Source: Abditibacterium sp. (GTDB lineage: Bacteria > Armatimonadota > Abditibacteriia > Abditibacteriales > Abditibacteriaceae). From it: a stretch of DNA of 64,000 nucleotides. How positions within the stretch are numbered: the stretch's first letter is position 1; each line of letters starts with the position of its first letter. A program made the position numbers and the translations under genes. The stretch spans positions 480,001 through 544,000 of the forward strand of contig CBDASK010000003.1 in NCBI GenBank assembly GCA_965199495.1, written 5' to 3'. This document shows positions 27,686-39,204 of the stretch, one piece after another. The notes beneath the pieces were generated by a model that was given only the letters and a program-made list of their open reading frames with translations, made no database searches and was not told the DNA's origin.

Positions 27686-27847
27686 AAATTTTACTTTGCT
27701 TCACTTTAGCAGAAAATCACTTTTTTGGCCTTCCTCAATTCGGAAAATCAAAAGACTGCCGGCATAACACGGAGGTAAACTTTTGGATTCCGAGCGATCA
27801 CAGAATTTTTGCAGGTTGCAATCCAAAGGAATCGGAAGCCAAATACA

Positions 27848-28612
27848 ATGAACAAAGATCAGAATCAGGATTACTCCGTTGTCGAACGCGCACTCGAAGA
27901 ATTGGAATTTTTGAACGCGACGGATGAACAGATTCGACAACTCCAAGAACAGCAAAAGCAGCGCAAAGCCGATATGATCGTGGAACTAAGCCAAAAGTTG
28001 AAGCAAGTTCCTCTGGAACAGGCCAATGTTGTAGCGTCGAACGCATACTGGGCCGACCCAAAACTAGCGGATGCGGTGAGAAAAGCCTATCTTTCTGGAA
28101 CAAATCGTGGATTTGTTCCACTCTCGATGCCCACAGAAATTGCTTGTGAGCGTTGCGGTAACTTGATCACGGCGACGAGTTGGACAAATTATAAAGACAT
28201 CGTGAGTCGTGCCGAACACCGTGAGAAAGAAGCAGCGTATCGTTGGGGCGAACAACTTTGTCTGTCTTGCGCCGAAGCGAAACGCGCTAAAAGAGACGAA
28301 GAAAGCGCAGCTTACTTTGATTGTTGGGAGGAAGAATGCGAAGCCGCCGAACGCGAACGAGAGCAGAGAGAAGCCGAACTCCAACAAATGTCCGGCGATG
28401 AGTATTTTCAAACCGAACACTGGCAACTTCTCGCCCAGGCGGTCGTGAAAAAAGCGGGATACCGTTGCCAATTGTGCAATACAGGCGGAATTCTCAACGT
28501 TCACCTCCACACTCAAGAAGTCCGTGGTCGTGAGTCGCTGGCGGACTTAGTTGTCTTGTGCCAACAATGCTCCGGCTCTTATCAGTTGATCGAGGAAATA
28601 CGAAAATCTTAG
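27848..28612 (+). CDS. Zn-finger/HNH endonuclease-like protein
   Basis: CERC and CLSC pairs; C-terminal YFQTEHW...CQLC...LNVHLH...GRE...LVVLCQQC. Confidence 0.65.
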   Translation: MNKDQNQDYSVVERALEELEFLNATDEQIRQLQEQQKQRKADMIVELSQKLKQVPLEQANVVASNAYWADPKLADAVRKAYLSGTNRGFVPLSMPTEIACERCGNLITATSWTNYKDIVSRAEHREKEAAYRWGEQLCLSCAEAKRAKRDEESAAYFDCWEEECEAAEREREQREAELQQMSGDEYFQTEHWQLLAQAVVKKAGYRCQLCNTGGILNVHLHTQEVRGRESLADLVVLCQQCSGSYQLIEEIRKS

Positions 28613-28726: not shown

Positions 28727-31312
28727 ATGCCAAGTTGGAAATCTTCATCGCAGTTCAGAACAGTATTCAACGAGTTACAAGCGTTGGAGGGATATGATTT
28801 CGTCCAAAAAATTCAACCACTGCTTATTCTGGTGCAGTCACAAGTAAATTCTGAAAGTAGTTTCGAGACTAAGACAGTTCCTGTTGAAAAATCAGGTGCC
28901 TTCGTTTTGTTTGGCCAAGCTGATGACTTAATGTTATCCTCGTCTGCTCTGAAGCAGACAGCGAGGAATGTCCCAGGAGACAAAAGCATTCACTCTGAAC
29001 CTTTGTTTCAGTTGGTTCAATGTCACGGTTTCATATCAGGTAACACTCAAGTCGGCGATGCTCAATCCCTTGAATGTCAACGTGCCACAGAAATTTTTTT
29101 GCAAAGCGGACTGCATGTTCAAAACTATGTTTTTGTTTACAATCGGCGAGAAAAGAATTCCACTTTCCGAGAATCAATAGAAAGTATTGGCAACTCGTTA
29201 GTTGAATCAGGTCGAGTCGATACGTTTCAGATTTGGAATTTGACTGATTTACTGGAACGATTGTGCGATGTATTTTTGTCTCGTTTATCAGAATTTGCAC
29301 AAAAATATGCGCCATCAACTTTGGCAGCCGATACGATACACGCTTATGAACCGTTGAAGAGAGTGCCTTTATCTGTATCAACCATATCTGTTGATGCTCA
29401 CTCGTTGCACTCTGACTCAGAAAAATTTGTTCACCAAGGTCTACTTGATCCAGTAGAAGAATTACTCAAAGGCAGAATTACGAATTACTCTGTGCTTCTT
29501 GGTGAGTTTGGTTTTGGTAAAACAACGGCAGCACTTCGTGCAAGCGCGCAACAGGAAACCCCTGTCTTCTTCGTATCAGGCGCCAGCCTAAATCTGAATG
29601 AGGTAAGCTCCAAAAATTTACTGTTACAGTGTGTCAATGAAGATGCATTAGCAGAAGAGTTTATTGACATCGATCAATCGCTTTTAAAACCTCTTTTGAA
29701 AGTTGTCGTCGAAAAATACTTTATCGCAGAGAAATGCCACGCTGTCCTGTTGTTCGATGCCATTGATGAAGCTCCACTACTCAACCGTAAAGGAGGGCTT
29801 CAAACTTTCTTTCAGCTACTGGCTCAAGTTCGGTGCCGCATACTTATGACGGTGCGAAGCGAGTTTTGGGATGTTCATAGAGCAGACTTTGAAATAGCCT
29901 TTGGTTCGGCCTCTGTTTCGGGACGAGGAACCCATAATCTTAAGCATCATAGTCTCATCCGTCTATTGCCGTGGTCGAACGTCGAAATTGCCCGACTTAT
30001 AAAGCGTCACCGAGATTCCTTAGAGGCTGAAGACGAAAAGGCACGTCTTCAAACGTTGCTTGAACTGGTAGAAAAAGGGCAATACGAGCAATTTTACGGC
30101 GATATTCCTCGGCGCCCATTGTTTCTTCAATGTATTTTGCAATCGGTGGAAGCACAAGGGGTTCAGCTAACTGGGCGGGTGCGTCTATTGGACAGATGGT
30201 GCCGCTTAAAAATACTGCGAGATACTCGTAATCCACAACGTTTCAATTCTACAGAAAGAATTCCGCTTTCTGATGACATCACAACTATGGAGGAAACAAT
30301 CAGCCTTGCTCTACTTGTGATGGAAAAAGCAGCACATTTAATGACACAAGAGAAAGATGGTGAAGTCGAGCTTCTTCCATTCTGCGATGCGAGAGAATTA
30401 CGTTCAATTGAACCTCAGTTCGACCGAATTACTAATTCTGGCTTAGTGCTAAACAGTTTGCTTTTACCGGTATCTCCCCGACTGCCAGGGACACCGCTCC
30501 GTCTACGGTTCGCACATCGCGCCTTCCAAGAATTCTTCCTTGCACGATTTCTCCTTAACGAGGGATACTCCCTCAACACGCCACTTCCGACAACAGTGCA
30601 AGAGTGGATGGAAGATTTGCGAACTTTGAATGAAGAAAATTTCGAGTTCTCAACGAATAAAGCCCGAATCGTTAAACCGATGTCTTTAACATCAACATTG
30701 GCAACTCAGAACATGGTTACAATTTTATTTCTTGCTTCCAATCCCGATGATGGTTCTGGAGGAGCATTAAAATTAGATGCAGAGTGCCGCTCAATAGACC
30801 AGCGTTTGCGCGCCAGCAAACATAGGGAAAGATTTGACTTGCGCTCTCAGTGGGCGGTGCGGGTAAATGATTTACAGAATGCACTTCTTGAGTATTCTCC
30901 AACTATCGTGCATTTTAGTGGGCACGGAAATTCGTCCGGTCAAATTATTTTGCAAGACGATACCGAAAGGTCTTTTCCAGTTTCGCAGCAATCGCTCAGT
31001 GAACTTTTCCAAATTCTTTCCCAAGAAGTGCGTTGCGTCGTCCTCAACGCCTGTTACTCTGAAGACCAAGCTCGCGCAATTGCTGATCATATCGACTGCG
31101 TCGTAGGTGTTCCTAACGAAATTGATGACACTGCGGCCATTAGCTTTTCTGCTGCTTTCTACCAAGCTCTCGGATATGGGTGCAGCGTTCAACAGGCTTT
31201 TGAATTGGGATGTAACTCTATTGGCCTTAGCGGACACGATGCCTCCCAAAGTCCTAAATTACTTACCCGTCGCGGCGTAGATGCTTCTAAAGTAGTTTTG
31301 ATTGACAATTGA
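28727..31312 (+). CDS. NACHT/STAND NTPase with C-terminal CHAT (caspase-like) protease
   Basis: Walker A GEFGFGKTT, Walker B LLFDAIDE, RPLFL and FAHRAFQEFF; CHAT motifs ILFLASNP, HFSGHG and VLNACYS. Confidence 0.85.
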   Translation: MPSWKSSSQFRTVFNELQALEGYDFVQKIQPLLILVQSQVNSESSFETKTVPVEKSGAFVLFGQADDLMLSSSALKQTARNVPGDKSIHSEPLFQLVQCHGFISGNTQVGDAQSLECQRATEIFLQSGLHVQNYVFVYNRREKNSTFRESIESIGNSLVESGRVDTFQIWNLTDLLERLCDVFLSRLSEFAQKYAPSTLAADTIHAYEPLKRVPLSVSTISVDAHSLHSDSEKFVHQGLLDPVEELLKGRITNYSVLLGEFGFGKTTAALRASAQQETPVFFVSGASLNLNEVSSKNLLLQCVNEDALAEEFIDIDQSLLKPLLKVVVEKYFIAEKCHAVLLFDAIDEAPLLNRKGGLQTFFQLLAQVRCRILMTVRSEFWDVHRADFEIAFGSASVSGRGTHNLKHHSLIRLLPWSNVEIARLIKRHRDSLEAEDEKARLQTLLELVEKGQYEQFYGDIPRRPLFLQCILQSVEAQGVQLTGRVRLLDRWCRLKILRDTRNPQRFNSTERIPLSDDITTMEETISLALLVMEKAAHLMTQEKDGEVELLPFCDARELRSIEPQFDRITNSGLVLNSLLLPVSPRLPGTPLRLRFAHRAFQEFFLARFLLNEGYSLNTPLPTTVQEWMEDLRTLNEENFEFSTNKARIVKPMSLTSTLATQNMVTILFLASNPDDGSGGALKLDAECRSIDQRLRASKHRERFDLRSQWAVRVNDLQNALLEYSPTIVHFSGHGNSSGQIILQDDTERSFPVSQQSLSELFQILSQEVRCVVLNACYSEDQARAIADHIDCVVGVPNEIDDTAAISFSAAFYQALGYGCSVQQAFELGCNSIGLSGHDASQSPKLLTRRGVDASKVVLIDN

Positions 31313-32046: not shown

Positions 32047-32355
32047 GACACACCTCATAAAGTGGAAGTAGCGTTGATGACCAGAAATCGTCACCAACGC
32101 GCTTACACTGAGGCGACATGCCGAGCAGTAACATCCGACTCAAAAGTTACTAATTTTTGATGATACTCTTTTTTGCTAAAAAAGCAAGACTCTGGGATTT
32201 AAATCCAAACTATTTAAGTCAGCGGTAATGATGTAGTGACTTGAGAATACTGCTGTCTGTTCGGTGGACTCAAATTCAATCATACTGCCAAGAGCAAAAA
32301 ACAGAAGGCGAATTGTCTCTCAAATTGCGTTTACAGCAGCTTCTTATTGGTTTTT

Positions 32356-33243
32356 ATGCCGGAGTCAACACGCATCATTTCTATCCCCAACGTGCTGGGC
32401 GCAGATTACTCTTCTATCGAACGATTTTACGACAAGATTATTGCGGCACCCTCAGCGAAACAATACAAAATCGATCTCCATCACGTCTCCTTTATGGTGC
32501 CTTATGGAGTAGTAGCCCTTGTTAATGGCGTCCGTTTGCTCCGCAGCCGCAGCAAAAATGGAGTCGAGTTAATCAATATTCAACCCCAAGTGCATTCGTA
32601 TTTGGAGCGCGTTGACTTCTTCGCCGACGCATTCAATTCTGGCTTTTGTAAATGTGATCCTGAAAATATATGGGGGCGGAGTGGCAATAGTATGACAATT
32701 TTGGAGCTTAAACTCCTTCATGATGAAGAGACTCTTGATACGGTAACCCGACGTGCCAGAACTATATTTACAAGCCATATAGGAAAAACGGCGGGTGCCC
32801 TTGTTGTAATGGTTCTCAGCGAGTTATGCACCAACGTGTTGCTGCACAGCGGTGACTTGTTGGGCACGATTCTTATTCAGAAATGTTCTCTCCCACATGA
32901 TCCTCATTCGATCTGTGTGCGCGTTGCTGTCGGCGATTTAGGATGTGGCATCAAAACAACACTGGAGCGCAAACATTCACACTTGAATAATCCCGCGCGG
33001 GCGATCAAAGCCGCTTTTGATGGTGTTTCCAGCCGTGATTCGGAGAGAAGTGCCCTGGGATTGAGAAGCGTCGCTCAGTTGGCTGCCGAACGCGGTGGAC
33101 ATATTTGGATCAGATCAGAAAATGCAGCTTTGTTGCACAGTTCCTATTCTCCCGAACGGATTTCCAGAGTAAGTTACGTTCCAGGAACTCAAGTTGCGGT
33201 CGAATTCCACGCCCCTGTAGACGACAAGATAGTGATTGGTTGA
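32356..33243 (+). CDS. STAS plus anti-sigma-factor-type GHKL kinase (CapK-like architecture)
   Basis: N-terminal IDLHHVSFM STAS-like segment; N-box ELCTNVLLHS, G1 DLGCGI, G2 ALGL and PGTQV. Confidence 0.75.
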   Translation: MPESTRIISIPNVLGADYSSIERFYDKIIAAPSAKQYKIDLHHVSFMVPYGVVALVNGVRLLRSRSKNGVELINIQPQVHSYLERVDFFADAFNSGFCKCDPENIWGRSGNSMTILELKLLHDEETLDTVTRRARTIFTSHIGKTAGALVVMVLSELCTNVLLHSGDLLGTILIQKCSLPHDPHSICVRVAVGDLGCGIKTTLERKHSHLNNPARAIKAAFDGVSSRDSERSALGLRSVAQLAAERGGHIWIRSENAALLHSSYSPERISRVSYVPGTQVAVEFHAPVDDKIVIG

Positions 33244-33280: not shown

Positions 33281-33299
33281 TTAACTTAACCTAAGTTAA
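33281..33299. promoter_or_regulatory. Palindromic operator candidate
   Basis: Perfect ttaactta-acc-taagttaa, 17 bp upstream of the STAS-wHTH start. Confidence 0.65.
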
Positions 33300-33316: not shown

Positions 33317-33934
33317 ATGCAACATCGAGTAATGGCAGAGTTAGCGAAGTCTGCGGGACAAGACCCTCACCTTTTGTTAAGGCGACCACGCGGGCAAGCG
33401 ATCTATCCTCACATAAAAGCGGCACTGCGCGGCATTGACAAAGGGGAATTGTTGTTGCTCTCTTTTTCGGAAGATCAGGATTGCGATCCGTCGTTTGTAG
33501 ATGAAACTCTCGTTAAGTTAGCACAGCAGTTGATAAAGGGAGAATTTGGCGAGAGAGGTCTGGCACTCACCGGTCTTAACGAAGGTATCAGCTTAAGTCT
33601 GGCAAGCACTCTGACGTTGCGGCGCGATGACGCGCGCAAAAGTAAAGAAGATTTCAAAATTAATTTCTTCATATTTGACAACGCGCCTTCATCGGGCCAT
33701 TTGCCCGCAGAAGGTTGGAAAATCGCAGGTCAGTTAGAGCAGAGTTTGGAAGAGGTTCTGAATCTATTGTCGCGTAGAGAATCTTTGACCGCCGCTGATT
33801 TGGTCGAGGAACTTGGTTTAGAAATTAGTTCGGCCAGTATGCGCCTGAAGCGTTTACATGAGCGCCACTTGGTGCGGCGGCAGTATCAAACGCTCTCAAC
33901 TGGCAGAGAGTTTGTCTACAGCTTCTGGCTTTAA
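33317..33934 (+). CDS. STAS-like plus winged-HTH transcription factor (CapS-like architecture)
   Basis: LSFSEDQDCDPSFVDE (anti-anti-sigma DxS site); C-terminal LTAADLVEELGLEISSASMRLKRLHERHLVRR. Confidence 0.75.
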   Translation: MQHRVMAELAKSAGQDPHLLLRRPRGQAIYPHIKAALRGIDKGELLLLSFSEDQDCDPSFVDETLVKLAQQLIKGEFGERGLALTGLNEGISLSLASTLTLRRDDARKSKEDFKINFFIFDNAPSSGHLPAEGWKIAGQLEQSLEEVLNLLSRRESLTAADLVEELGLEISSASMRLKRLHERHLVRRQYQTLSTGREFVYSFWL

Positions 33935-33949
33935 ATTCGGCGGAACCAG

Positions 33950-34000
33950 ACTTAACCCAATCCGTGTTAAGTGTAGATTTTAGCATAAACCTAACTAAAA
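33950..34000. promoter_or_regulatory. Operator candidates upstream of the ubiquitin-like operon
   Basis: acttaac-N9-gttaagt inverted repeat, then ttttag-N11-ctaaaa; shares cttaacc and acctaa elements with the 33281 site. Confidence 0.55.
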
Positions 34001-34047: not shown

Positions 34048-34956
34048 ATGAAACACAAAAACGAAAAAATCGAGATTACCGTTGACGGAATCTCCTACAA
34101 AATCAGCGAAGTTGAACCGACCGGTCGAAAGATTTTCGAGACCATAGGAAAAAAGCCTGACACGTATTTGCTCTCTCTCATCGTTGCCGATGCCCCAGAC
34201 CGTTTGCATGACGCGTATGAGACGATTGACCTCAGCAATCCTGCCAATCGGCATTTCAACCTCATCGAAAAAGCGCGCCATTATGCTTTTCGGGTGGACG
34301 AGCAATCGTTGGATACGACTAACCCAAATATCACGGGCCGCGAGTTGCTGAAGATGGTGGGCAAATCTCCGCAAACGCATCAGCTTACGTTTCAGATCAT
34401 CGGCCAGTCGGATGTGTTCGTTGAGGCGGACGAATCCGCCGAATTGGAACGTTCTGGGCGCGAGCAGTTTTTCACGGTGTTGAGGAAACCGCTCACGATT
34501 ACCATTGATGGCGCCTCCTATCAACCTGGCGTCATTGAAATCAGTGGGGACAAACTGCGTCATTTGGTGACGCCGCCAATTTTCGAGACCAAGGATTTGT
34601 GGTTTGACGTGCCAGGCAAAGAAGATTTGCTGGTGAAGTCCGGTGACACCATCGCCCTCAAAGATGGCATGGCTTTTTACAGCGCAGCGCGTGCGGGACT
34701 GACGCTGACGTTCGTGGTCAACGGCGCTTCGACGGAAGTATCGGTCAAGCCCAAGGATATTCTGAGAGATGCCGCGATAGAAGCGTTAAAAGCCACCGGA
34801 AACGATCAGGGGCGCCCCATCGAAGAATGGGATTTGAAGGACAGCGACGGTGTCGTGATCGACATGAGCAGCAAAGTCGAAACGCACGGATTTACGTCCG
34901 CGACGAGGCTCTATCTCAGTCCCAAAATCGGCGCGGGAGGCAGCGATGAATTTTAA
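34048..34956 (+). CDS. bilA: Multi-ubiquitin-like protein (3 Multi_ubiq-like repeats plus DUF2604-like Ubl)
   Basis: Four ~70-85 aa beta-grasp-like units beginning ITVDG, FRVDE, ITIDG and FVVNG; C-terminus LYLSPKIGAGG-SDEF. Confidence 0.8.
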   Translation: MKHKNEKIEITVDGISYKISEVEPTGRKIFETIGKKPDTYLLSLIVADAPDRLHDAYETIDLSNPANRHFNLIEKARHYAFRVDEQSLDTTNPNITGRELLKMVGKSPQTHQLTFQIIGQSDVFVEADESAELERSGREQFFTVLRKPLTITIDGASYQPGVIEISGDKLRHLVTPPIFETKDLWFDVPGKEDLLVKSGDTIALKDGMAFYSAARAGLTLTFVVNGASTEVSVKPKDILRDAAIEALKATGNDQGRPIEEWDLKDSDGVVIDMSSKVETHGFTSATRLYLSPKIGAGGSDEF

Positions 34957-35539
34957 AGATGCAGTTGTTGACCCCGCAGTTTCGCGCGTCAAATTCGAGC
35001 GCGAAGTCGCGTTGTATCGAGAGAACAGCGACGATTACATCGCGCGCGGATGGTGGTTGGTGAAAGCGGAATTTCCACAAGTTTTGGTGATTTTCGGAAA
35101 GCCTGGTATTTCGCCCACTGTGGCGCCTATTGGTGCTTTGATTGACTTCTCCAACTACGACGCATGGCCGCCCTCAGTTCAGTTAGTGAATCCGTTCACA
35201 CAAGTGCCATTCAAAACTAACGAAGTTCCGATTCCTCCATTGATGAAGTTTCACAAGTCAGACAATCCCAACGGCCCTCAGCATGAAAATTTGCTTCAAA
35301 CGCAAGGGCCAGAAGCGATTCCGTTTATCTGCGTTCCTGGCATCCGCGAGTATCACGAGCATCCGGCTCATTCGGGAGATTCGTGGTTTGTTCATCGCAA
35401 AAGAGGCGAAGGCACTCTTTACTTTATCCTTAATTTACTCAACACATACGGCATCGGCGCCATAACAGGCTTCAGCTTCAACTTACAAATCCAAGTGGGA
35501 CTTCAAGGCCCCAATACAGTGGACGAGATACCAAGATGA
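34946..35539 (+). CDS. bilB: E2-like conjugating protein (Metal_CEHH family)
   Basis: SRVKFEREV, DFSNYDAWPPSV and FICVPGIREYHEHPAHSGDSW; overlaps the Ubl stop. Confidence 0.8.
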   Translation: MNFKDAVVDPAVSRVKFEREVALYRENSDDYIARGWWLVKAEFPQVLVIFGKPGISPTVAPIGALIDFSNYDAWPPSVQLVNPFTQVPFKTNEVPIPPLMKFHKSDNPNGPQHENLLQTQGPEAIPFICVPGIREYHEHPAHSGDSWFVHRKRGEGTLYFILNLLNTYGIGAITGFSFNLQIQVGLQGPNTVDEIPR

Positions 35540-36135
35540 CGGGACTACTTCATATTACTCGCGTGATTGTGCCGCACGACAAGGCCGAAGCCGCCCATTT
35601 GCATCTGCGTAAAATTGGGCATCAGGGTTCCGAAGCGGTGGCGCTCTGGGTTGGTGTCGTCCGCGAGAACAATTTTGAAGTGCGCGAAACCATTATTCCC
35701 AAACAGACGCCGCAACGCACGCCAACGGGCATCTTGTTCACCGTTAGCCCTCAAGAATTGCACCGCATCAATGTCTGGCTTCACGAGAACGAGATGCAAA
35801 TTATCGCGCAATTGCACAGCCATCCTCAAGAGGCTTACCACTCCGAACTGGATGATGAATTGCCGTTGGCGACGACGGTGGGCTGTTTATCTCTGGTCAT
35901 TCCAAACTTCGCCCGCGATCCTTTTTCTCTGCGCCGTTGCGCCATTTACCGGCTAATTCCCGATCAAGGCTGGACTCAACTCAGTCCCGCCGAAACCGCA
36001 CGCTTAATTACCGTAAGAGCGGAAAAGCCTGAGCAAATCTCCGATAATCAGCCTTCGTCTCGCTCCAAAACTCCGCCGCCAAAGCAACATAAAACATTAT
36101 GGGACTGGCTCCATTTTTTCAAAAAGCGGCCTTAG
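35536..36135 (+). CDS. bilC: JAB/MPN metalloprotease (deubiquitinase)
   Basis: EAVALW and HSHPQEAYHSELD JAMM motif; SLVIPNFA. Confidence 0.85.
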   Translation: MTGLLHITRVIVPHDKAEAAHLHLRKIGHQGSEAVALWVGVVRENNFEVRETIIPKQTPQRTPTGILFTVSPQELHRINVWLHENEMQIIAQLHSHPQEAYHSELDDELPLATTVGCLSLVIPNFARDPFSLRRCAIYRLIPDQGWTQLSPAETARLITVRAEKPEQISDNQPSSRSKTPPPKQHKTLWDWLHFFKKRP

Positions 36136-37652
36136 CTGGCTCACACCTACTGCGCGATTTCGAGTTCGATGCGTTCTCGCGCCTGCTCCTGGCGCAGACG
36201 GTTCGCGTCGCGTTTGATGCCGAAGCTCTTCGCTCCCGCGAAGGGTTGGTAACTCTTGAACTCACCGTCAATTTGTTGGCGCGCCTCTATCCGCGCTTGG
36301 CACTAACGCCGCTTGAGTCGGTCGAATCAGAGGTTCTTAACCGATTGATGTCGCTGGCGCGTTCGATTAATCCTGCTATTGATTTCACAACGGCAAGCGA
36401 TTCGGCGACTGTTTGTATCGTTATCGGCTCTACTCGGCTTACGGGCGAGGCGCCCACGATTTACGTTGGCTCCGACAACTGGATTACCGCACTCTCGACC
36501 TCATCTCCGGTCGGAAGTGGCGATTCCGACAACCCGTTTGGCGCCGCCGCTGCCGCTTGCTTTGGCGTCGCCAAGGTATTCCGAACGACCTTTGCCGATC
36601 AGTTGGTTGGCGTGACTTGGGAAGAAAATTGGAAGATTTCACTTCTCAATATAGATGACAGAACCGAGCTTTTCAATCCGCCTACAAAAGATGTTGATAT
36701 GGGAGAATGTCATTTGGTGGGAGTAGGTGCGATTGGCAACGCTGCCGTTTGGGCGTTGGCGCGCGCGCCATTCTTGAAGGGAACACTGCACCTAATAGAC
36801 AATGAGGAAGTTGACGATACCAATCCTCAGCGATACGTTCTCACGGGCGTTGCGGATGCGGGAACAAGCAAGGTTGTTCTGGCACAACGCGCTCTAAAAG
36901 GGTCTCAATTAGAGGTTTGTCCGCACGCGCTTTCTTGGGGAGAGTATTTGAAAGAGCGGGACAATTGGCATTTAGACCGCGTGGCTGTTGCGCTGGACAC
37001 ACCGGAAGATCGCCGCCTGGTTCAAACCGCTCTGCCTCGATGGATCGTCAATGCCTGGACGCAGCCTGATGACCTGGGGATTTCGAGGCACGGATTTGCA
37101 AATGGTCAAGCCTGTTTAATGTGCCTGTATATGCCCGAAGGAACGGTGCCCGACGTGGACGATCAGATTGTAAGTTCCCTCAATCTGCCCGATGATATGG
37201 AGACGTTACAGGCGGTGCGGCGTCTTCTGGTGACGGAAGAACCAATTGGCATGGATTGGGTTAGGCGAATTGCTACGGCGAACAAAGTAGAAATCGAACG
37301 ATTGACGGATCTACAGAATTTGCCGATACGGAGCTTTTATCAAAAAACAGTTTGTGGCGGCGTCTTACTTTCGCTTGGCGCGGATGTCGGCACAGCTCCG
37401 CGCAACACCGAAGTGCCAATGGCTTTTCAATCTGCTCTGGCCGGAATTCTTCTGGCAACCGAACTCGTCGCGCACTCCGCCGGACTGAAAAGCGACTTCA
37501 ATCATGTGACCACGAAGCTTAATTTGCTGAGACCGCTGGGATGCGATTTATCTCTTCCCGCACCTCAACATCCTTCGGGCAAATGTATATGTCAGGACGA
37601 GGATTACATCAAAGTATACGAAGACAAATATGGCGAGCGGGAGCAATTCTAA
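36099..37652 (+). CDS. bilD: E1-like activating enzyme (Prok-E2_C-like N-terminus plus ThiF)
   Basis: GVGAIG, DNEEVDDTNPQRY, Zn ligands CLMC and CIC, candidate catalytic Cys in TVCGG. Confidence 0.85.
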   Translation: MGLAPFFQKAALAGSHLLRDFEFDAFSRLLLAQTVRVAFDAEALRSREGLVTLELTVNLLARLYPRLALTPLESVESEVLNRLMSLARSINPAIDFTTASDSATVCIVIGSTRLTGEAPTIYVGSDNWITALSTSSPVGSGDSDNPFGAAAAACFGVAKVFRTTFADQLVGVTWEENWKISLLNIDDRTELFNPPTKDVDMGECHLVGVGAIGNAAVWALARAPFLKGTLHLIDNEEVDDTNPQRYVLTGVADAGTSKVVLAQRALKGSQLEVCPHALSWGEYLKERDNWHLDRVAVALDTPEDRRLVQTALPRWIVNAWTQPDDLGISRHGFANGQACLMCLYMPEGTVPDVDDQIVSSLNLPDDMETLQAVRRLLVTEEPIGMDWVRRIATANKVEIERLTDLQNLPIRSFYQKTVCGGVLLSLGADVGTAPRNTEVPMAFQSALAGILLATELVAHSAGLKSDFNHVTTKLNLLRPLGCDLSLPAPQHPSGKCICQDEDYIKVYEDKYGEREQF

Positions 37653-37653
37653 T

Positions 37654-38181
37654 CTACCCGATGAGGTGAAACAGCAGTAGAAATATAGCCAGCACGCCAA
37701 GTGGCGCCATAAGCACCTCTTCGGCCAATGATCCAGTGGTAAAGCGAAGCCTCTTTGGTAGTAAATAGAACCGATCTGCCTTGGGGTAAAGTAAACGAAT
37801 GCCGCTCTTGGTGGCTGAATCGCCAAGCAAATGACTGGCGTAGCCCAGTAATAAAGCAACGACAGGTGCCCATCCCACCCAAATCATGAGTGGAGCAACA
37901 AACACAGCCATCATGCCTAATCCCCAAAGCGAGTGCAACAATCCACGATGCTGGTTAGTGCTATGGACAACTTGTGCAGGCAAGAGAAATGGCTTAAACG
38001 TAGTGCCAGGAAATTTCAGATGTTTAATTTTCGATTCCGAAGCATCGAGATCAGGCAGAAGAGCACCCAAAGCAGCACAAGCAGCCAAGGTGCCCATGTC
38101 ATATCCGAGAACTTCTGGCGGCAACAATGAGAGCAACCAGAGCGTATTGACTCCGAGCAATGCGTGTGTAGGCCACGTCAT
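37654..38181 (-). CDS. YdjM-family membrane metal-dependent hydrolase
   Basis: MTWPTH, GALLPDLD, HRGLLHS and GYASHLLGD...GI. Confidence 0.88.
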   Translation of the reverse strand: MTWPTHALLGVNTLWLLSLLPPEVLGYDMGTLAACAALGALLPDLDASESKIKHLKFPGTTFKPFLLPAQVVHSTNQHRGLLHSLWGLGMMAVFVAPLMIWVGWAPVVALLLGYASHLLGDSATKSGIRLLYPKADRFYLLPKRLRFTTGSLAEEVLMAPLGVLAIFLLLFHLIG

Positions 38182-39204
38182 ATCACTTCCTTTTCGTTTT
38201 TGAACGGAAATTCTGCTCCGTTTATAGGCCAAAGCTGAATGTTTTTAGTCATGGCGATGAGTTATTTCCAAGTGCTTTACTCTTAAGAACCTGCGACGCG
38301 AACGCTCGCGCTAAGAACTTGAGCTATCTCGCCAACCGCCAATTGAATGCGGTAAATTAATGGTTCGAAATTACGAGGGCGCGGCCAGAATAACCGAACA
38401 AAAACCGAATATTAGTCCAATTTGCTTAATGGGATAAGTCGCGCTCGTCCTGCGTAAGTCTTATTTCTAATCTGAATAGGCGTCAAAGCCCAGTAGTCTG
38501 TGAATGGTAATCGGGCAACTCTGCAGAGTTTTTACGAAAGATTTCAGGGTATCTTTAGTGCCATCTACAGAAGGCACATTAATGCTAATATAATACGTCC
38601 GACATGACAATTGATACGGTTAAAGTTGTAAAAACCGAATCCGTAATGGAGATTAGCCTTCATCTTCTAGTTAATGGTATATTTTAGTATTATTTTCCTA
38701 AGAAGCTGTTAGCACGCTCGACTATTTTGTTGGCTTTGCGCGTGTAGGGGCGCTTTTGGCGATGCTCAATTGCGCTATTATTACATAATTGTTGAAAATC
38801 CAGACTTTTTTGCTGCCGTAGATGCCCGTGGCTTGGAGACAAACGTGAACCTTGCTTATCTCTGGCGGGGTCATTTCTGCTGAATCTAACTCGCGATTTA
38901 CTGGTGAGTATTGGGAGTGTTATCAAACCTCTTGTGGCGTGCTTTGGTAGCGTTTTGCGTGGGCAAAACAATGAATCTCAAGATGTTTTCCTTCGCAAAG
39001 CTCAGCCCTTTCTCTCTCTGGTAAGGGATTAGGGAATTCCAAATCTATGATGTTTTCCCCAATGGCTTCGCCGTTGCGCTCATTCCCGTTGTAAGCAGTG
39101 GGGGCACTCTAAGCGGTTCTTGTAGAAACTTCCTCATATAGCCGGGATTTCTGTCGAAAAGGCGGATATTTTTACAGAACTTTCACTTATTTAAACTTTT
39201 TGGT

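Follow-up and report, generated by a model that had tools for sequence, protein, structure and literature searches.

A four-domain ubiquitin-like protein in a Type II Bil operon, with three N-terminal domains resembling a Bub-type tag

The window (the whole 64-kb stretch of DNA analyzed here) contains two regulator-like genes followed by a four-gene operon that opens with a four-domain ubiquitin-like protein (Ubl), referred to here as Ubl4 (Table 1). The order Ubl, CEHH/E2, JAB, multidomain E1 is the one by which Type II Bil operons are defined (Chambers et al., bioRxiv 10.1101/2023.09.26.559546), and it is present both in the window and at a second locus, L002. The E2, JAB and E1 match structures from Ensifer aridi and retain the catalytic residues. 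The JAB has the Glu, His-x-His and Asp of a Type II BilC, BilD combines an inactive and an active adenylation domain with a catalytic cysteine and the zinc cysteines, and the terminal domain of Ubl4 carries the conserved glycine (G298) followed by four residues, within the range of 0-9 for a Type II BilA. As judged from sequence, Ubl4 fills the BilA position in an intact Type II Bil operon, for which conjugation and JAB processing are predicted. PADLOC returned no match for BilA or BilB. A Bub operon, with a Prok-E2_E-type E2, a cysteine-free E1 and the DUF6527 protein BubE, was ruled out, as the E2 and E1 are of the cysteine-bearing Bil type; no DUF6527 was found by Pfam among the 11 window ORFs scanned.

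Table 1. Positions of the Bil operon, its regulators and candidate operators in the window
Feature	Position	Strand	Evidence or remark
TTAA-N11-TTAA upstream of capK	32199..32217	.	not found in L002
CapK-like STAS-GHKL kinase	32347..33243	+	Pfam HATPase_c and weak STAS; 69% identical in L002
TTAA-N11-TTAA with nested TTAA-N1-TTAA, capK/capS gap	33281..33299	.	wide site also in L002
CapS-like STAS-wHTH repressor, candidate phospho-Ser59	33317..33934	+	Pfam wHTH; PDB 9z72/9z71 E 4e-5, 2e-3; D-x-S-F aligned
TTAA-N11-TTAA palindrome, candidate CapS operator upstream of bilA	33952..33970	.	same place in L002
BilA, four-domain ubiquitin-like protein (Ubl4), 302 aa	34048..34956	+	ORF, Pfam, AlphaFold2, VIA-align
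Ubl4 domain 1, Multi_ubiq, aa 6-75	34063..34272	+	repeat test, AlphaFold2; aligns to domain 1 of solved Ubl3 proteins
Ubl4 domain 2, Multi_ubiq, aa 77-145	34276..34482	+	Pfam; Ca2+-ligand equivalents D122, E139 kept
Ubl4 domain 3, Multi_ubiq, aa 147-213	34486..34686	+	homologous to Bub-type Ubl terminal domain ending PxxINPG; tail absent
Ubl4 domain 4, DUF2604 Type II BilA conjugating domain, aa 216-298	34693..34941	+	ends at predicted reactive Gly298
SDEF pro-tail, predicted to be removed by BilC	34942..34953	+	overlaps E2 start from 34946; varies among Ubl4 homologues
BilB, E2 (Metal_CEHH), catalytic Cys129	34946..35539	+	Pfam E 4e-47; 8tyz_C E 5e-41
BilC, JAB/JAMM peptidase, E33, H94, H96, D106	35536..36135	+	PADLOC BilC E 4e-17; 8tyx_B E 9e-47
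BilD, multidomain E1 (Prok-E2_C and ThiF), catalytic Cys419, zinc-site cysteines present	36099..37652	+	8tyz_A E 5e-149 over 1-513; PADLOC BilD

Upstream of bilA, and unnoticed in the original prediction, a STAS-GHKL kinase gene lies directly before a STAS-wHTH gene that encodes the conserved serine. This is the arrangement of CapK+CapS, a DNA-damage switch that precedes 231 Bub operons versus 5 Bil operons (PMC13373217). The STAS part of the CapS-like protein is recognized solely by a weak alignment to 9z72/9z71, and Pfam detected no HTH family at the N-terminus of the kinase. The wide operator of the characterized CapS consists of TTAA half-sites with a 10 bp spacer (PMC13373217). TTAA-N11-TTAA occurs three times in the 64-kb window, each time in an intergenic stretch next to capK, capS or bilA, a count that was reached in 4 of 100 shuffles, and two of the three sites recur at the same places in L002. 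The difference in spacer length and the lack of a detected N-terminal HTH in the kinase count against the CapS-switch reading. L002 has the same six genes as the window and the same gene downstream, which encodes a YdjM-family membrane protein convergent with bilD (window 37654-38232, minus strand; L002:9589-10113, minus strand). Regulators move freely between systems, as L003 has IrrE/HTH genes in place of CapK+CapS. The GC content of the Bil region, at 44-52%, is below that of most of the window, and of 41 related genomes only that of the window was found to contain DUF2604, a pattern typical of a sporadic cassette. The same low-GC region also encodes an 861-aa protein (28727-31312, plus strand) whose C-terminal part is a CHAT domain (Pfam E 9e-8; PADLOC SAVED_CHAT/chat E ~1e-13) and which also contains a P-loop-like motif (GEFGFGKT); it is possibly a second defence gene. 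A 267-aa ORF (27809-28612, plus strand) has several Cys-x2-Cys pairs and an HNH-like end, with no Pfam match at E 0.1.

Ubl4 ends in ...SPKIGAGGSDEF (translation of ORF 34048-34956). The original prediction described a hybrid in which three similar beta-grasp repeats are fused to a different, DUF2604-like domain, and proposed an HMM scan and an AlphaFold domain count as checks. Both bear it out. Pfam matched Multi_ubiq (E 5e-19) as well as DUF2604 (E 2e-15, residues 218-298), and AlphaFold2, run on a 51-row alignment, gave four strand-strand-helix-strand units with a mean pLDDT of 90.3. Pfam counts two Multi_ubiq stretches in Ubl4, three in P0002-P0005 and P0013, and two in P0162; the generic Multi_ubiq HMM misses divergent third domains, and architectures labelled Multi-Multi are therefore undercounts. 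In global alignments, domains 1-3 resemble one another (d1/d2 z 8.2, d1/d3 z 5.1, d2/d3 z 5.0; each score reached by none of 1000 shuffles). Domain 4 scored z -0.3, 0.1 and 1.5 against domains 1, 2 and 3 by the same test with 1000 shuffles, indicating that it belongs to a different family. By VIA-align, residues 216-298 superpose on E. aridi BilA (8tyx_A) with Z 15.1 and rmsd 1.6 over 82 aligned residues, and residues 6-217 align to the E. coli Bub Ubl3 (9cd2_B) with Z 11.9 over 206 residues and an rmsd of 11.4, indicating that the domain orientations differ. The pTM of 0.52 likewise makes the relative orientation of the units uncertain, and pLDDT falls below 50 in the tail (296-302). The count of four beta-grasp-like domains from two families is thus confirmed.

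The C-terminus was originally described as a masked di-Gly motif that must be trimmed by the JAB protease. The GAGG-SDEF sequence is present; "di-Gly", however, overstates the motif. G298 aligns with the reactive G97 of E. aridi BilA, which ends GVAG-A, and among the 57 DUF2604-terminal proteins examined the commonest ending is GAGG (21 of 57), with the last glycine alone invariant. Trimming is expected by homology, given that E. aridi BilC cuts after Gly97 (Chambers et al.) and that the window's BilC is closely related to it, with E33, H94/H96 and D106 kept. However, the masking tail itself is common: 35 of the 57 proteins carry a tail, 19 end at the glycine and 3 are fused or long. Type II BilA proteins have up to 9 residues after the conserved glycine (Chambers et al.) and 12 Type I BilA have tails of 2-9 aa (Hor et al., bioRxiv 10.1101/2023.09.04.556158), so that the masked glycine is an ordinary, already published trait. 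The tails of Ubl4 homologues are SDEF, CDEF, SNES, CNGR or, in P0013, absent. The ATG of the E2 gene at 34946 overlaps the last 11 nt of bilA (Asp300 to the stop), the codons for Gly298 and Ser299 lying before the overlap; this is ordinary translational coupling, and many BilA-BilB pairs recovered with a DUF2604 alignment are outright fusions. Glycine motifs are also found inside some Ubl proteins: the Bub-type Ubl-Ubl-E2 fusions P0145 and P0111 have one for each Ubl unit (QTEG/QTDG; DNTEG twice) and are, by sequence, candidates for true polyubiquitin-like precursors.

Four domains exceed the published range and are rare. The range of one to three given in the original prediction agrees with the literature: Gong et al. 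(bioRxiv 10.1101/2024.11.21.623966), with 134 Ubls of Type II Bil and 542 of Bub, found 1-3 domains, "four" and "five" are absent from Table S1 of that study, and Iyer et al. 2006 likewise give one to three domains. A search of the openly accessible literature for four-beta-grasp ubiquitin-like proteins found nothing relevant. The Multi-Multi-Multi-DUF2604 architecture is represented by 7 clusters at 90% identity comprising 14 sequences from several sources, indicating that the fusion is not an assembly error. A survey of homologues for domain number, which the original prediction had called for, shows that four-domain forms are not common. Among the best 150 of 1084 representatives (50% identity), 56 contain DUF2604, consisting of 42 single-domain proteins, 6 Multi-Multi-DUF2604, 4 double DUF2604, 2 Multi-DUF2604 and 2 four-domain proteins; since the query favours four-domain matches, the true four-domain share is lower than 2/56. 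On the Bub side four domains are also reached, by P0074, a possibly truncated protein of 337 aa that has four Multi_ubiq stretches and no DUF2604, breaks off just into an E2-like region and may have more domains. Within the phylum, Multi_ubiq was found in 12 of 301 genomes, and among 11 translated Multi_ubiq loci none other than the window's own has four domains. Two runs of a search of genome contigs for related loci gave 37 and 34 pattern matches, none of them confirmed, and a search of metagenome contigs gave 3 loci from 453 matches. A deeper search with a DUF2604 alignment returned 48 proteins, most of them either fusions of DUF2604 to an E2 or DUF2604 pairs, with no new four- or five-domain form; as it scored only 8000 candidates and missed known Ubl4s such as P0004 and P0005, it carries little weight. 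Tandem DUF2604-DUF2604 BilA is a recurring class (P0018, P0026, P0106, P0113, P0164-P0169, P0185), although just one two-domain Type II BilA is listed by Gong et al.

The original prediction had also not seen where domains 1-3 may come from. Outside the Ubl4 set, their closest relatives are the three-domain proteins P0014, P0163 and P0016 (35-46% identity overall), which end in FYTAPxTINPG and a short tail. Domains 1-3 have the three colinear Multi_ubiq domains of a Bub-type Ubl3 and are colinear with the whole of P0014 and P0163 at 45-46%. The best matches to domain 3 outside the Ubl4 set are terminal domains that run into P-x-x-I/V-N-P-G, its identity to the last domain being 56% for P0014 and 49% for P0163. 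Ubl4 parallels these INPG-ending proteins up to FYS and then runs into DUF2604, PxxINPG being replaced by the linker to domain 4, such that no reactive glycine follows domain 3. Genomic context is available for two of the seven Ubl4 clusters (the window and L002) and for two loci with INPG-type Ubl3 (L003 and L004). P0163 lies in L003 before Prok-E2_E, JAB-ThiF and DUF6527 genes, that is, in a Bub-type operon; P0015 and P0038 are fused to Prok-E2_E, and L004 shows a Ubl3 and a partial E2-like ORF and nothing more. The operon of L003 (5926-8822) has separate Ubl3 and E2 genes, a fused JAB-E1 and DUF6527 on the opposite strand, and adjoins IrrE-like and HTH genes.

In a tree of 82 d1-d2 cores, drawn from proteins of at least 200 aa after removal of 7 near-identical cluster members, all 7 Ubl4 rows group together (SH-aLRT 92) inside a 12-row clade (SH-aLRT 98) with P0014, P0163, P0015, P0019 and P0021, and this clade contains no Bil Ubl3. 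The d4 tree places six Ubl4 in a weak group (81) apart from P0013, a hint of a second, separate Ubl4 fusion. The alignments are short (145 and 85 columns) and the trees are midpoint-rooted quick searches; donor and direction are therefore not proven by them, the direction being read from the lost INPG tail. Taken together, by sequence Ubl4 has the appearance of a Bub Ubl3 in which a fused BilA domain has taken the place of the original conjugating tail, and the far more frequent association of CapK+CapS with Bub than with Bil operons weakly fits a Bub-derived 5' end. Elsewhere in the d1-d2 tree, P0020 and P0032 have sister cores (SH-aLRT 99) with a DUF2604 terminal domain in one and a different terminal domain in the other, a recent-looking handle swap.

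Given these features, the account that we regard as probable is that Ubl4 acts as BilA in a Type II Bil pathway and is conjugated whole as a ~32 kDa four-domain tag in which domains 1-3 are Bub-derived cargo. By homology, DNA damage or ssDNA may activate the CapK-like kinase, which would phosphorylate the CapS-like repressor and free the TTAA operators, a step that we hold with moderate confidence. The next steps have strong homology behind them: BilC would remove SDEF after Gly298, and BilD would adenylate Gly298 and pass the tag through Cys419 to Cys129 of BilB and on to target lysines. Only domain 4 would engage the enzymes. Sequence and trees place domains 1-3 with Bub-type Ubl3, from which they would have been captured, the PxxINPG end being lost on in-frame fusion to the BilA domain; they would add bulk and possibly self-association, such that the tagged protein would be blocked or sequestered. 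The absence of a conserved internal glycine motif suggests that Ubl4 would be attached whole, as one tag, and the label "poly-Ubl" in the original prediction is misleading, as none of the internal domains ends in such a motif. The target would most likely be a phage structural protein, by extension from Type I Bil, and this is the weakest step. Obstruction of virion proteins, as proposed in the original prediction, has been demonstrated in a Type I Bil alone (Hor et al.), Gong et al. state that the targets and defence of Type II Bil are unknown, and no phage protection is reported for Type II Bil in the available text of Chambers et al.

Another role for the same chemistry, possible but less likely, is sequestration in Ca2+-controlled filaments as a response to stress, in which domains 1-2 would polymerize, domain 3 would be a spacer distancing domain 4 from the filament, and phage structural proteins would not be the target. 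The Ubl3 of Bil and of Bub form Ca2+ filaments through domains 1-2 (Gong et al.), CapK+CapS answer DNA damage, and no phage protection by Bub operons has been demonstrated (PMC13373217). Ubl4 keeps the ligand equivalents E139 (56/56 rows), D122 (52/56) and E58. Changes at other ligand positions count against this role. Of the intra-dimer ligands D85 and E147/E148, the second is kept as E139 and the D85 equivalent, at site 1, is Ala76 (Glu in 3 of 7 Ubl4 clusters), a change common to most of the surrounding subclade, Asp being present in 21/56 rows overall. Of the inter-dimer ligands D30 and D130/D131, the second is kept as D122 and the site-3 D30 is Glu21 (Asn in several relatives); the site-2 E62 is Arg52. 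The solved filament-forming proteins lie outside the Ubl4 subclade by their D85-equivalent residue, and Citrobacter Ubl3 became monomeric once its intra-dimer sites were removed (Gong et al.). Complex prediction for two copies of residues 4-214 with Ca2+ gave a median of 0.41 (runs 0.45, 0.41, 0.34) against a mark of 0.42, with controls at 0.30, 0.01 and 0.00, and weighs neither for nor against filament formation.

A broader form of the preferred account, which we advance only tentatively, is that bacterial Ubls combine a cargo with a handle. The terminal domain would do no more than select the chemistry (thioester in Bil, oxyester in Bub), and the Multi_ubiq array at the N-terminus would be an exchangeable effector, swapped many times between the pathways. 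Ubl4 would then be the frozen capture of a whole Bub tag, dead conjugating domain included, with domain 3 retained because it now recognizes or cross-links the target.

It is unlikely that domains 1-3 serve instead as an adaptor or decoy that binds Bub-pathway proteins, the target or a phage anti-ubiquitin protein, and so selects targets without an E3. Although no longer conjugable, domain 3 is the best conserved cargo domain, with W185-D187-V188-G190-D193 and M208-F210-Y211 invariant in 11/11 rows. These residues may nevertheless be structural and the rows were chosen for similarity, and no second Multi_ubiq locus was found in the genome, hence no resident Bub Ubl gene. Less probable still is an origin without a Bub donor, in which a Type II Bil Ubl3 (Multi-Multi-DUF2604) gained its fourth domain through an internal duplication or an insertion. 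The mutual similarity of domains 1-3 is as such an origin would have it, and the Methylobacterium brachiatum Bil Ubl3 aligns to domains 1-2 and 4, leaving domain 3 as a clean insertion. However, domain 3 is ~50-56% identical to INPG-ending terminal domains and matches its own domains 1 and 2 at 15-17 of ~73 residues, and the colinearity with whole P0014 and P0163 described above also speaks against it. AU tests on a 26-row subset reject the grouping of Ubl4 with 6 Bil Ubl3 (p 6e-8) and with the nearest Bil Ubl3, P0020 (p 1e-6), leaving this origin largely refuted; they also reject the Bil Ubl3 d1-d2 cores as a clade of their own (p 1e-6), indicating that cargo modules moved between handles repeatedly. 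Finally, despite its tandem repeats, the adjacent peptidase and the precedent of a glycine motif after each unit in P0145 and P0111, Ubl4 is most improbable as a polyubiquitin-like precursor cut by the JAB into separate Ubl units, since its linkers (IEKARHY, VLRKPLT and YSAARAGL) lack a conserved glycine, G217 is absent in P0004, P0005, P0013 and P0162, and the linkers are well ordered in the AlphaFold2 model.

Pathway, regulator and masked glycine are all known from earlier work, and the most interesting feature is the grafting of a Bub module onto Bil. Ubl4 raises the largest reported number of domains in a bacterial Ubl from three to four and provides sequence evidence for the exchange of tag modules between two chemically different bacterial ubiquitination pathways. 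As a natural chimera with a separable handle (domain 4) and cargo (domains 1-3), and with a key Ca2+ ligand absent in its subfamily, it makes the role of the extra Ubl domains testable.

Among known systems, the Type II Bil of E. aridi TW10 (Chambers et al.; PDB 8TYX/8TYZ; formerly CEHH/6C) has the same gene order and four protein families, the same catalytic cysteines in E1 and E2, the same JAB residues and a DUF2604 terminal domain with a tail-masked glycine. However, its BilA has one domain as opposed to four, and the regulator is CapK+CapS-like here. The Ubl3 of the M. brachiatum Type II Bil (PDB 8U38/9D5B; Gong et al.) shares a Multi_ubiq-Multi_ubiq core and DUF2604, indicating that the two-family hybrid was already known, and its Ca2+ ligands E148 and D131 correspond to E139 and D122; Ubl4 differs in having a third Multi_ubiq domain, domains 1-2 of another lineage and Ala in place of the D85 ligand. 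The BubA Ubl3 of Bub (6E/DUF6527) systems in E. coli ZDHYS365 (9CD2) and Citrobacter (9D59) (Ye et al., PMC11601596) has three tandem Multi_ubiq domains colinear with domains 1-3, whereas domain 3 of Ubl4 lacks the conjugating glycine tail and the operon has cysteine-type Bil enzymes without Prok-E2_E or DUF6527. With CapK+CapS (PMC13373217) the locus shares a STAS-GHKL kinase followed by a STAS-wHTH protein upstream of an immune operon and TTAA half-sites, the wide-site spacer being 11 rather than 10 bp and the kinase lacking a detected N-terminal HTH. The Type I Bil of Collimonas sp. OK412 (Hor et al.), the source of the virion-obstruction model, is alike in operon logic, but has other sequence families, a two-domain Ubl and a demonstrated target.
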